Both the position numbers and the translations under genes were made by a program. Under the pieces are notes generated by a model. It saw only the letters and a program-made list of their open reading frames with translations, had not been told where the DNA came from and ran no database searches. DNA of 64,000 bases from Chlorobiaceae bacterium (GTDB lineage: Bacteria; Bacteroidota; Ignavibacteria; UBA10030; SZUA-254), in NCBI GenBank assembly GCA_013824245.1, contig PNNN01000011.1, forward strand, positions 43,396 through 107,395. The letters are read 5' to 3'. This document shows, piece by piece, positions 15,287-64,000 of this stretch; position 1 is the stretch's first letter; each line of letters opens with the position of its first letter.

Positions 15287-15583
15287 ATGTCGCAACACGA
15301 AGAACAACATACGCAGCATTCAGTCGGTTACGGCAGATATATTTTAATCTGGCTCGGTCTGCTCGCGTTTACCGGCATAACGGTAACGCTCGCCGGTATC
15401 GATTTGGGTAGATGGGTTATTATCACTTCACTTGTTATTGCTTCAATAAAATCTATTTTGGTGCTGAATGTTTTCATGCACTTAAAATTTGAAGACAAAA
15501 TGTTCAAAATATTTGTTCTCGTTGCTGTTGCAACGCTTGTGATATTTATTTCACTGACATTTTTCGACTACGCGTTCTATTAG
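15287..15583 (+). CDS. cytochrome c oxidase subunit IV (prokaryotic CoxD-type small subunit)
   Basis: 98 aa with three TM helices, immediately after subunit III. Confidence 0.6.
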   Translation: MSQHEEQHTQHSVGYGRYILIWLGLLAFTGITVTLAGIDLGRWVIITSLVIASIKSILVLNVFMHLKFEDKMFKIFVLVAVATLVIFISLTFFDYAFY

Positions 15584-61131: not shown

Positions 61132-61728
61132 TCATTGCCTTGCAAATTCAATGAGAGATTGATAATCGTTTTCATCGGCTTTACGCAGAGCTTTCAGATA
61201 CGCCGACCTTGCGGCACCTTGTGCCGTCAAATTGATACTACCCCATGAAAAGGTGGGACGACCAAATCCATGGCTTACGAGAATATCTGCTATGAGGCGG
61301 GAATGTCTTCCGTTCCCGTTTGAGAATGGATGAATCATAACAATCCGGTGGCTGAATCTCACGCCAATCTCGTCCTCATCAAACACTTTGTTGTCGATCC
61401 AGTATCGGCAATCGTCTAAGAGCTTCTTTATTTCGGTACGGATTTGATTTTTATCTACACCAAGATTCTTATTCGAGATTCGGAATTGTCCAGCCCACTT
61501 CCAAATATCCTCAAACATCTTTTTGTGCAGCTCTCTCACAAACTCCTCGGTAAGTATCTGCTGGAAACCAAATTTTCTTTTCCTTGTCCATTCTATGGCT
61601 TTCTCCACTCCAAGCTGTTCAAATTCGTCAAGCTCGCCCCGCGTCGTAATCGTCGGTATGAGTAAGCCATCTTTCTCGTCTTCATCAATTGGAGTTTGAC
61701 CGTTCGTGTAATCGAGATCTAATCCCAT
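61132..61728 (-). CDS. Fic family protein (mobile mystery protein B type)
   Basis: The Fic motif HPFSNGNGRHSR is present. Short Fic with the context typical of mobile mystery protein B. Confidence 0.8.
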   Translation of the reverse strand: MGLDLDYTNGQTPIDEDEKDGLLIPTITTRGELDEFEQLGVEKAIEWTRKRKFGFQQILTEEFVRELHKKMFEDIWKWAGQFRISNKNLGVDKNQIRTEIKKLLDDCRYWIDNKVFDEDEIGVRFSHRIVMIHPFSNGNGRHSRLIADILVSHGFGRPTFSWGSINLTAQGAARSAYLKALRKADENDYQSLIEFARQ

Positions 61729-62183
61729 AGATGTTTCGGCATCTCTTGTTTCAGCATATCTGCCCTGTCTTTGATTGCCCGCCGTAATCTATCTTCTCTG
61801 TTTTCCTGTTCCTCAAGCTTCATAGTATGGGAGGTTCTCATTACAACATCACGAGCAACTTGTTGAGCACGCTTGTCGATCATCTTTTCAATGGAAGATT
61901 CCTTCGGTAAGAATCCGTACACAAACTGAAGATCGAGTGCCTCGCCAACTTCAATCAATTTGTTGAGAGTGATAGTCTTGTTCTGCTCTCGTTCTTCAAT
62001 TTCTTTCACGCTTACCGATGTCTTGTTGAGCCGTTTTGCAAGCTGCACTAACGACATGTTGAGTGTTGTTCTAATAGCGTTTATCCATCCTTTTGAGGGT
62101 ACCTCAACTTCACTTAAAACATGCAGTTTCGCCAACTTCCTGTCAAGTTGTTCTACCATGAGCTTTTTGTTGAGTTTATCCAT
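61719..62183 (-). CDS. HTH-domain partner of Fic (mobile mystery protein A type)
   Basis: XRE-like HTH (SLVQLAKRLNKTSVSVKEIEE) immediately upstream of and overlapping the Fic gene. Confidence 0.7.
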   Translation of the reverse strand: MDKLNKKLMVEQLDRKLAKLHVLSEVEVPSKGWINAIRTTLNMSLVQLAKRLNKTSVSVKEIEEREQNKTITLNKLIEVGEALDLQFVYGFLPKESSIEKMIDKRAQQVARDVVMRTSHTMKLEEQENREDRLRRAIKDRADMLKQEMPKHLWD

Positions 62184-62471
62184 TAGGGTATATCCTTGTT
62201 TGTGATGCCATAATATAAGGTTATACCCTTATTATTGCAAATGGATTATTAGGGAATACCCTTTGTTAGGAGATGATTTTTCTTGGGAACAGCTTGAGCG
62301 AGGATTAGATATAGGATATCTTTTTCTCTATTTGAGCTTGCAAAATCCAGCCGCATCCTGAGCTTTGTCGAAGGATGGAGGGTAACTTTGCTTGTCCCGA
62401 ATTCTTTTTTCGGGGTACATATTATTATAGATCGTGAGCCGATTGCTCTCCACATTGGCAGGAGAGTCGCT

Positions 62472-62496
62472 AACTATAGTATGTAGACTTAAAGTA
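62472..62496 (+). promoter_or_regulatory. putative C-box operator pair upstream of the controller gene
   Basis: AACTATAGTA-TGTA-GACTTAAAGTA is a degenerate form of the GACTnnnAGTC-TGTA-GACTnnnAGTC C-box architecture. It lies about 23 bp upstream of the ATG. Confidence 0.5.
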
Positions 62497-62518
62497 GGCA
62501 GGATTGTATATTAAACAC

Positions 62519-62728
62519 ATGAAAAATTCAATAATTATCAGATTTGGTAAGCGTGTTCGTCAAGAAAGAACAAAAAGGGATCTGTCGCAAGAGCAACTTG
62601 CCGAATTAGCAAATGTGCACAGGACATACGTTGGCATGGTAGAAAGAGGAGAAAAAAACATCACCTTGTTCAATATCGAGAGAATCGCCAAGGCGTTGAA
62701 GATATCGGTCAGTGAGTTGCTCTCCTAG
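62519..62728 (+). CDS. restriction-modification controller (C) protein, XRE-family HTH
   Basis: About 70 aa. LSQEQLAELANVHRTYVGMVERGEKNITLFNIERIAKALKISVSEL matches the C-protein family pattern (L.QE.LA...YIS..ERG..NP.L..L.KIA.AL). Confidence 0.75.
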   Translation: MKNSIIIRFGKRVRQERTKRDLSQEQLAELANVHRTYVGMVERGEKNITLFNIERIAKALKISVSELLS

Positions 62729-62749
62729 CATGAAGGAAATTAAGAGACA

Positions 62750-63778
62750 ATGACACCACACATCTCAGAGCTACTAGCAGGTCGAATTACAGAACTGAAT
62801 TATCCGGATTTGTTGGTGCGATACCCTTGGATAATGCAGAGAAACAAAAAATGCATATTAAGTCCGGATAGTGACGGACTCCTATGTGGATTGTTCATGT
62901 CTATGTATTTCGGATGGAAAGTGGTGGGTTACTATGATGGAAAGGTAATGTTGCTGAAAGAAGGGGTCTCAACGCATGATGATGACTGCGTTTTTTTAGA
63001 CATGGAGATTTACAGATCTCATGTAAAGAGCGTCGGTCATCACATGGTGTTGCTCAACAAAAATAGGATCACCAGTGACTGGACGAACTTCACAAATTGT
63101 CTGCAACCAAACAATCTACGATCTTATGACGGTAAACATGATTTCCGACTAAAATATCCTCTAGCGACAATACATTTTTTAATCGGAATAGTAGGCACAC
63201 AACATCCGATTGATATTCCTGTCAGTGCGATAGCACCTCTCTTTTTTACTGATGGCACGTTCAACGTATTGTATAAATACCCTGAAAATGTCTTGAATTG
63301 GTTAAACTACCTTGGAATTGAAAAAGAGGGTAGCCCATTACGGAAAATTTTTATGCATGATCATTTTACTGTCTACGACCAGATGAAGATAATGGACGAC
63401 TTCTTCCGAAAGCGGGACAAACTCAATGAGCAGGGTGAAAGAGGAGACAAGTTCGGAATCTCTGAATCGGATGGACAATTTAAGAACATCGAAGATCAAT
63501 CGCATAGAAAGGTAAAAGTTTCAGACGCAGAACAATGCAAAGTGAAGGGTTTTATCAAGCTGCTTGCAGAAACGACAGGGTGGCGGTTTGATGAAGATGC
63601 ATGGACGTTTGAGAATCTGAAGTGCTACAAGTTCAGCAAAGGGTCTTTCGAGGGAAGGAAGTGGACTGTATCTGACAGAGATTTTGACAAGTTAATGCGT
63701 TTGAACCCATTGTCGTGGGCAATGACAAGCGGTCAAAATATCGAGTTCACTTTAGAGGAGCCCGATTCTCTTCCTTAA
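62750..63778 (+). CDS. uncharacterised 342-aa protein under C-protein control; putative restriction endonuclease or other effector
   Basis: It lies 22 bp downstream of the C gene on the same strand and converges, with 3' overlap, on a DNA methyltransferase gene. No recognisable family motif. A possible but unconvincing PD-(D/E)xK-like segment is ...[17 protein letters not shown]. Confidence 0.3.
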
Positions 63779-64000
63779 GGGAGATTTGAGTAACCTCCTG
63801 AATAGAGATTTGGTATTCCTCAATAAATGGGAGATTACTGTCCTCTTCAGAGGAGACGATGTTGGTTTTGGAAAAAAGAGGCGACTCATTCTCAGTGTCC
63901 CGCAAACGCCTTTCTGCAATCTCACAGTATTCTTTGCTGATATCAAAACCGATGTAGTGCCTTCCTATTTTCTTTGCGCTCACCGCTGTTGATCCACTCC
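63747..64000 (-). CDS. DNA methyltransferase (N6/N4 MTase family), C-terminal portion; gene continues beyond the window end
   Basis: The C-terminal motifs [33 protein letters not shown] are typical of the N6_N4_Mtase domain end. The ORF is open to the window edge. Confidence 0.7.

Follow-up and report, generated by a model that had tools for sequence, protein, structure and literature searches.

A candidate restriction endonuclease without a known family, encoded between a controller protein and a convergent methyltransferase in a Chlorobiaceae bacterium

What is the function of a protein of 342 amino acids (aa) that shows no recognisable motif, when its gene lies between the gene for a controller (C) protein and the convergent gene for a DNA methyltransferase (MTase)? 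This question is raised by the far end of a 64,000-nt stretch of DNA (the window) from a Chlorobiaceae bacterium metagenome-assembled genome (assembly GCA_013824245.1, contig PNNN01000011.1, positions 43,396-107,395 of the forward strand). The gene in question, whose product we call protein X, occupies positions 62750-63778 on the + strand and is annotated as a hypothetical protein (MBA4311503.1). A prediction made earlier from the letters alone (the original prediction) described a C-protein operator, a C gene, the gene of X and an MTase gene, and every one of these elements was found at or near the place it gave. The C protein and the MTase can each be assigned to a known family, while X matched none of those tested by profile and fold searches. 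Our analysis indicates that the locus is very probably a mobile, C-protein-regulated Type II restriction-modification (R-M) system, with X as its restriction endonuclease (REase).

Searches of Pfam, NCBIfam and PADLOC with X gave nothing at E<=1, and no Pfam RE_*, PADLOC REase_II or NCBIfam model was matched. Phmmer searches of the PDB by sequence, with X and with the profiles A1 and A3, returned noise only, and a Pfam scan of 59 diverse relatives of X at E<=10 revealed nothing recurrent. The original prediction had described an open reading frame (ORF) of 342 aa with no recognisable nuclease motif, and this description holds. X nevertheless has many homologues. A 90%-clustered database contained 826 of them, all named hypothetical and 50-87% identical to X, in Ignavibacteriota, Bacteroidota, Planctomycetota, Firmicutes, Chloroflexota, many members of the candidate phyla radiation (CPR/Patescibacteria), and DPANN and methanogenic archaea. 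An exhaustive profile search yielded 550 representatives of the family at 50% identity clustering, and tblastn found no homologue in plasmid and phage collections. Many relatives of 300-325 aa align confidently with X over the N-terminal ~190 residues only, and these retain a short C-terminal FS(Y/W)A...YT hairpin motif.

The genomic neighbourhood of this family was highly consistent. We sampled 90 loci, 83 of them non-redundant, from Ignavibacteriota, Bacteroidota, Planctomycetota, Firmicutes, CPR and DPANN/methanogen archaea, and X adjoined an orthologue of the window MTase in every one (90/90, phmmer E<=1e-116). The two genes were convergent, with 3' ends touching or overlapping, in 73/90 loci, and were arranged in tandem (M->X) in 17/90. 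In the window itself the gene of X starts 21 nt downstream of the C gene, with which it is likely to be co-transcribed, and its 3' end overlaps that of the MTase gene by 32 nt, which confirms the claim that it holds the position of an REase gene and overlaps the 3' end of a convergent MTase gene. About half of the convergent loci, and 0 tandem loci, have a regulator gene ahead of X. It encodes a classical C protein or, in the CPR and Planctomycetota, an XRE protein unrelated to it.

Pairing with an MTase extends to much more distant relatives. Three remote ones (P0215, P0196 and P0262, 22-26% identity) all adjoined PF01555 MTases (3/3), and two of these MTases were only 25-27% identical to the window type, one carrying SPPY and one DPPF. 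P0262 (L096 3501-5256), a very divergent relative of ~24% identity without the YDGK motif, stands in X->M order beside an MTase 64% identical to the window type. P0205 (L091 4001-5872, on a 33-kb NCBI contig) is a single ORF of 623 aa in which a PF01555 MTase is fused to an X-like domain. That the pair strictly stays together through rearrangement, fusion and transfer between domains, with C-protein control besides, is as expected of a restriction endonuclease. X founds a superfamily, the remoter members of which pair with other beta-class MTases, presumably of other specificities. We also observed an N-terminal fusion of a helix-turn-helix (HTH) segment to X (P0175, 272 aa); a read-through or a truncated gene call could explain it instead.

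If such a system is active, its hosts might be expected to carry few of its sites, and for the 83 system-bearing sequences (594 kb) we set the k-mer counts against those expected from maximal-order Markov models. AGCCT/AGGCT, that is AGSCT, was the most depleted of the 512 reverse-complement-collapsed 5-mers, with 179 sites observed vs 512 expected (observed/expected ratio, O/E, 0.35), while the next most depleted 5-mer stood at 0.67 and the ten most depleted were all quasi-palindromes. AGSCT was entirely absent from 26/83 sequences. The window contained 6 sites vs 37 expected (O/E 0.16), and L177, a second assembly of the same genome (15.5 kb, 99.97% identical over 9.25 kb), contained 0. Depletion was found in every subgroup (tandem loci 0.29, archaea 0.36, CPR 0.31, classic C-protein loci 0.47), and also when the flanks (0.33) or the R-M genes (0.23) were taken by themselves. 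As controls we used 80 loci (842 kb) of the same lineage anchored on the housekeeping gene accA, chosen irrespective of R-M systems and none encoding X. There AGSCT had an O/E of 0.94 and ranked 71st, and the medians of the per-locus ratio were 0.25 for system loci vs 0.93 for controls (Mann-Whitney p=9e-16). AGWCT, at an O/E of 0.79, was not depleted, and the bases flanking the residual AGSCT sites revealed no clear extension of the motif.

This depletion points to active restriction. From the avoidance of AGSCT we therefore predict recognition of this 5-bp quasi-palindrome with methylation at the conserved C on both strands, which would give AGS-m4C-T (m4C, N4-methylcytosine). That AGSCT is the target of the system seems to us clearly more probable than not, if by no means certain. 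The word is absent from the searchable literature, and we know of no described REase with this specificity, REBASE lying outside the check. Several other candidates were set aside. CTAG, GGCC and GATC were depleted equally in control loci or generally, and CTCGAG and GAGCTC were low with counts too small to judge. GGCC was strongly reduced in the window (16 observed vs 93 expected, O/E 0.17) and low in many controls as well, and this was attributed to other R-M systems. CCWGG was also scarce in the window (15 vs 46 expected); depletion of these two words points to other R-M systems (HaeIII-like and EcoRII/BstNI-like) acting on the organism. The original prediction had left the choice between a new REase family and a different toxin kept in check by methylation. 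This alternative is supported, and REase is now the favoured side of it, given the linkage in all sampled loci, the MTase-X fusion, the remote pairings and the avoidance of AGSCT.

The regulatory part of the locus can be described in more familiar terms. The C gene (62519-62728, + strand) encodes an XRE-type HTH protein of 69 aa; its start codon was placed by alignment with the orthologue of locus L001, which starts MKETILIKFG. It matched the PADLOC model Control_protein at E=6.5e-25 and Pfam HTH_3 at E=2.3e-16, and its closest solved structures were C.BclI (2b5a, 2.6e-15) and C.AhdI (1y7y, 1.6e-14). The proposal that it is an R-M controller was thus borne out, with a length of 69 aa and not 70. 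Like in the window, the C gene lies directly upstream of X and in the same orientation in L001, L012, L013, L044, L051, L053, L054 and L058-L062.

A double C-box operator of 31 nt, GCTAACTATAGTATGTAGACTTAAAGTAGGC, lies upstream of the C gene at 62469-62499 (+ strand), and its core is conserved across loci. It consists of a well-conserved distal box (GCTAACTATAGTA), a TGT spacer and a weaker proximal box (AGACTTAAAGTAGGC). The string given by the original prediction, AACTATAGTA-TGTA-GACTTAAAGTA, was found at 62472-62496, and the conserved unit is slightly larger. The 18-nt core (62469-62486) occurs once in the window, with 0.01 occurrences expected by chance when up to three mismatches (<=3) are allowed. 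At least 11 unrelated loci, with flanks that do not align with one another, have it ahead of their C genes, and the element GCTAAC(T/C)(A/T)TAGTATG(T/A)G is nearly all that the closest C genes of unrelated contigs have in common in their upstream regions. The loci with this conserved core include L001, L012, L013, L051, L053, L054, L058-L060 and L062. In the window, L001, L012 and L013 a weaker second box, AGA(C/T/A)TTAAAGTAGGC, follows directly after the core and ends at 62499 in the window; in Flavobacteria-type loci the second copy of the C-box is an inverted repeat 10-25 nt away. The view of a double C-box upstream of the C gene was therefore correct, but not that of a simple degenerate pair of the PvuII type, GACTnnnAGTC, as these loci have a motif of their own, GCTAAC(T/C)(A/T)TAGTATG, followed by the weaker proximal box.

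A sigma-70-like consensus scan placed a promoter-like site at 62484-62512 (+ strand), of which the -35 hexamer, TAGACT (62484-62489), falls within the proximal C-box, and the -10 hexamer, TATATT (62507-62512), lies six nt ahead of the C-gene ATG. Transcription would then begin at or beside this ATG and give a leaderless mRNA. We read it so because of the spacing of operator and promoter: the C-box ends 19 nt before the ATG, and leaderless C genes typically have 18 nt from operator to start codon (PMC2632904). In the C.PvuII-like operators described before, a short conserved spacer parts a strong distal from a weak proximal box, the start codon follows after ~18 nt and the mRNA is leaderless (PMC2632904), and the architecture found here matches that picture. 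Three Flavobacteria-type loci (L051 ~4847, L059 ~4841, L062 ~4254) have the C-box core (GCTAATTATAGTATGC) once more, directly ahead of the MTase gene, which implies, by analogy with Esp1396I, that the C protein may control the MTase promoter there too. No such copy was found upstream of the MTase gene in the window's genome or in L001.

The MTase gene runs on the - strand into the end of the window, which holds its 3' part (63747-64000, stop at 63747), coding for the C-terminal 84 aa; this fragment alone matched PF01555 at E=3.9e-7 and identifies a beta-class N4/N6 DNA MTase. The full gene, taken from L177, is intact and encodes 315 aa, in which motif IV (SPPY) stands at residue 38 and motif I (FMGSGST) at residue 230, the order of the beta class. 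SPPY is typical of N4-cytosine MTases, and the solved MTases nearest to the window enzyme in the PDB include N4-cytosine enzymes, so that an N4-cytosine enzyme appears most likely. The window type is 84% identical to the MTase of L001 and ~72% identical to its archaeal and CPR orthologues.

The system can thus be compared with those of the PvuII, AhdI, Esp1396I and BclI type. As in these, the C gene is followed closely by the gene of the putative REase in the same orientation, while the MTase gene is separate. The nearest solved relatives of the C protein are C.BclI and C.AhdI. The operator has the stronger distal and the weaker proximal box, the short conserved spacer and the overlap with the -35 element, and its distance to the start codon, about 18-19 nt, is that of leaderless C genes. 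Like its counterpart in PvuII, the MTase is a beta-class PF01555 enzyme. The differences lie in the operator sequence, GCTAAC(T/C)(A/T)TAGTATG here vs GACTnnnAGTC in the PvuII type, in X, which is unrelated to the REases of PvuII, AhdI, Esp1396I and BclI or to any profiled REase family, and in the fact that the same R-M pair occurs elsewhere with a different XRE regulator, with a LexA-MTase fusion or with no regulator, unlike classical C systems. Judged by this analogy, the mode of working would be that of an ordinary C-regulated Type IIP system, with a layout closest to PvuII, AhdI, Esp1396I and BclI. The MTase would shield the host DNA, while the C protein would bind the double C-box that overlaps the -35 element of the promoter of C and X. 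If PvuII, AhdI and Esp1396I are a guide, occupancy of the distal box would activate a weak, probably leaderless C-X transcript, and later occupancy of the proximal box would repress it. X would hence be made only once the MTase had had time to act.

How could X cleave DNA? An AlphaFold2 model of the full-length protein reached a pLDDT of 93.9 and a pTM of 0.93 (pLDDT 94.9 for the N-domain, residues 1-228). It consists of two domains: the N-domain has a small beta-sheet (strands 34-37, 57-62, 66-70, 80-83 and 93-95) followed by a helical region (109-225), and the C-domain (about 240-342) is mixed alpha/beta. Seven residues were invariant in 59 diverse superfamily members (D42, G60, D84, H98, K135, P137 and N180), and D40, Y62, S94, G96, N121, Y136, T140, D168, Y177, W184 and S322 were nearly so; the N-domain alignment A3 gave a very similar conserved set. 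In the model D40 and D42 follow strand 1, D84 (and E86) follows strand 4, and G96-H97-H98 follows strand 5, so that, judged by secondary structure, the carboxylates and the histidine would come together along the C-terminal edge of the sheet, an arrangement known from metal-dependent phosphoesterases. This cluster (D40, D42, D84, E86, H98 and D168) may bind a divalent metal and hydrolyse the DNA backbone.

X resembles the known REase classes (PD-(D/E)XK, HNH, GIY-YIG, PLD and half-pipe) in its genomic role, its MTase partner, its patchy, horizontally transferred spread and its ORFan-like sequence behaviour; the latter and a patchy distribution are typical of REases. Seen in their secondary-structure context, its conserved residues fail to fit the patterns PD...(D/E)xK, HNH and GIY-YIG. 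A Foldseek search with the model of the whole protein found nothing in the PDB better than E=0.08, the top matches being glutamate dehydrogenases with a TM-score of about 0.18, and nothing significant in BFVD, where all E-values were >=0.07. Neither solved REases nor half-pipe or HhH-GPD proteins were among the Foldseek matches. The novelty claimed by the original prediction thus stands after profile, PDB-sequence and Foldseek checks for known nuclease folds, none of which gave a significant match, REBASE being outside their scope. Readings of the conserved motifs as PD-(D/E)XK, HNH, Toprim, HAD or calcineurin-like were dropped by hand, as strand/helix context or motif order appeared unfit. 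MaeIII was likewise rejected as the identity of X, since its MTase is a CamA-like N6-methyladenine enzyme (PMC10113651).

One resemblance recurred below the threshold of significance. RecJ/DHH proteins were the top or recurrent matches across three Foldseek searches. About 10 of the top 25 matches in BFVD were RecJ, NrnB or DHH proteins (all E>=0.07), and the top match of the N-domain in the PDB was the archaeal RecJ-Cdc45 7bhi_B (E=0.034, probability 0.69, TM 0.33, below significance), with M. jannaschii RecJ (6tvv_A and 7yor_A, TM 0.39), S. aureus RecJ (8y30), the PF0399 DHH domain (5yh1) and D. radiodurans RecJ (5f56) also in the top 21 of that search. The sequence shows a pattern reminiscent of the DHH superfamily: a DxD after beta-1 is followed by a helix, a D comes after a later strand (FLD), an HH after the next strand (GHH) and a further D later on (TDG). 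D40-x-D42, D84, G96-H97-H98 and D168 are invariant or nearly so and are ordered as DHH motifs I-IV, with a motif III that lacks the Asp and in which H97 can be N or Q, a correspondence at the level of sequence. X is also a two-domain protein of ~320-340 aa, like NrnA.

However, X departs from the DHH superfamily in several respects. Its motif III reads G-(H/N)-H in place of DHH, it has no GGGH/DHHA1 motif, its strands beta-2 and beta-3 form a hairpin, and no structural match was significant (all E>=0.03, TM<0.4). Pfam DHH (PF01368) and DHHA1 (PF02272) matched neither X nor any of the 59 diverse members even at E<=10. HHalign of X against an alignment of Bacillaceae NrnA gave a probability of 0.2% and an E of 0.3, a weak negative given that the NrnA alignment was shallow (Neff 2.3), and no DHH proteins were present in the fetched loci. 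The DHH enzymes known so far act as exonucleases or nucleotide phosphodiesterases and not as endonucleases that cut double-stranded DNA at specific sites, and our literature searches found no DHH-type restriction enzyme. A derived DHH-like origin of the catalytic domain is thus a serious candidate that we would stop just short of favouring. The fuller proposal, that X founds a new REase superfamily whose N-domain is a highly derived DHH/RecJ-like two-metal phosphoesterase and whose window-type members cut AGSCT, is put forward tentatively and on the doubtful side. If the DHH-like origin is wrong, the fold of X is one without a detectable solved relative.

Several considerations weigh against this reading of the locus as a whole. 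The nuclease activity of X, its cofactor and its cleavage site are all putative, and no profile or fold search links X to a known nuclease at a significant level. It is possible that X has been characterised earlier, in unpublished work or in REBASE only, which our searches did not cover. Activation and repression by the C protein are suggested by analogy. Of the MTase, the window holds the last 84 aa only, and it is taken for a putative m4C enzyme because of SPPY and its resemblance to N4 MTases of the PDB. The avoidance of AGSCT is a correlation, and the actual site could be a superset or a relative of this word. Moreover, L096, with its divergent X and an MTase 64% identical to the window type, showed no depletion of AGSCT (6 observed vs 6.6 expected); it may be a decaying system or one of altered specificity.

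Could X act in another way? It might restrict DNA not as a phosphodiesterase but as a restriction DNA glycosylase/apurinic-apyrimidinic lyase (like R.PabI and R.CcoLI), or as some other methylation-blocked enzyme that damages DNA. Base-excision REases paired with ordinary MTases reportedly exist, genomic linkage and site avoidance would look identical for them, and no known nuclease fold or motif was detected in X. However, four or five invariant carboxylates and a His at strand ends are typical of metal-dependent phosphoesterases and not of glycosylases, the best structural neighbours, although sub-threshold, are RecJ/DHH phosphoesterases, and the Foldseek matches were free of half-pipe and HhH-GPD proteins. 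We regard this explanation as quite improbable. To much the same degree we doubt that X is not the sole effector, whether it were an accessory, specificity or DNA-binding subunit that needs the MTase (Type IIG/IIB-like) or a non-restriction partner, in repair or regulation, of a solitary MTase. The MTase-X fusion P0205 would suit such a role, as would the lack of a recognisable nuclease signature in X and of any regulator in about half of the loci. Yet the beta-class MTases are complete, stand-alone enzymes of 270-315 aa with a target-recognition region of their own, and the invariant acidic/His cluster argues for catalysis. C-protein control is a hallmark of a toxic REase gene (PMC2632904), and strong, system-specific avoidance of a palindrome indicates selection by cleavage, not by methylation alone.

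The least probable explanation in our view, and a very improbable one, is that X is a relic in this genome, an inactive or decaying gene beside an orphan MTase. Its expression is unproven by sequence alone, and the MTase lies inside the window with its C-terminus only. On the other hand, X is intact, of full length and has kept all superfamily-invariant residues, the full MTase is intact in L177, the C gene and its operator are intact, and the depletion of AGSCT in this host is the strongest seen (6 vs 37 expected in 64 kb, 0 in L177). A functional REase remains our preferred identity for X.

New catalytic architectures among REases are rare, and each has altered the view of how site-specific DNA cleavage evolves. 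The family of X is large (550 clusters at 50% identity), yet it has been missed by every annotation library tried, and little is known of the defence repertoires of the uncultured lineages (CPR, DPANN, Ignavibacteriota) in which it is spread. If the DHH-like assignment is true, an exonuclease/phosphodiesterase scaffold would have been recruited for sequence-specific double-strand cleavage, an architecture beyond PD-(D/E)XK, HNH, GIY-YIG, PLD and half-pipe and a fold class not known to have been reported for an REase; if it is false, the N-domain of X would be a new nuclease fold. X is also potentially a reagent of new specificity.

The loci further indicate that one R-M pair swaps its regulation between lineages, from a classical C protein to a second XRE family, a LexA-MTase fusion or an M->R operon. 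The second XRE-family HTH (...SQSYISKIESGQRRIDV...YKK..F) takes the slot of the C protein in CPR, Planctomycetota and Chloroflexota and is unrelated in sequence to classical C proteins; it lies just upstream of X in L003, L019, L022, L032, L036, L039, L042, L043, L049, L056, L061, L067, L071, L073, L081, L082, L086 and L087. Many CPR/Patescibacteria loci encode an orthologous MTase whose N-terminus carries a fused, full-length LexA (TIGR00498 E=3.8e-51) with DNA-binding and S24 peptidase domains, as in L003/L004/L005 (6009-7460, - strand) and about 17 other CPR loci. This fusion suggests SOS-linked or autoregulated control of the methylase instead of control by a C protein.

The R-M genes are part of a variable region. 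In the sister genome L098 (AccA 91% identical), synteny with the window extends up to 61096, the end of a polysaccharide-flippase gene, and picks up again at a 384-aa ORF (96% identical) past the window end. Between these anchors our genome carries ~3.9 kb in total, namely the C, X and MTase genes and a Fic-type pair of mobile mystery genes. The same slot of L098 (13959-20951) carries an AAA_14/DUF4143 ATPase, a DUF4440 gene, a 208-aa ORF and an Eco57I/TaqI-like gamma-class MTase. With such different cargo in the two genomes, the C-X-M genes therefore sit in a variable defence/R-M hotspot, and the island is an insertion into a variable chromosomal slot. At 15449-15549 L098 repeats the 3' end of the flippase gene over 101 nt with 86% identity, which looks like the footprint of a site-specific insertion.

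The mobile mystery pair, encoded on the - strand, comprises protein B (61132-61728; Fic/DOC with HPFxxGNGR, NCBIfam TIGR02613 E=8.9e-71) and protein A (61719-62183; HTH, TIGR02612 E=8.6e-39), and is neighbouring cargo of the island outside the R-M system. Just upstream of the pair lies an inverted repeat of 16 nt (62182-62197 / 62217-62232, 88% complementary), which could be its operator. The spacer of 335 nt between mobile mystery A and the C-box contains a terminator-like hairpin (62393-62417) with a 9-bp stem followed by a T-rich tail, and small - strand ORFs at 62249-62455 are probably spurious.

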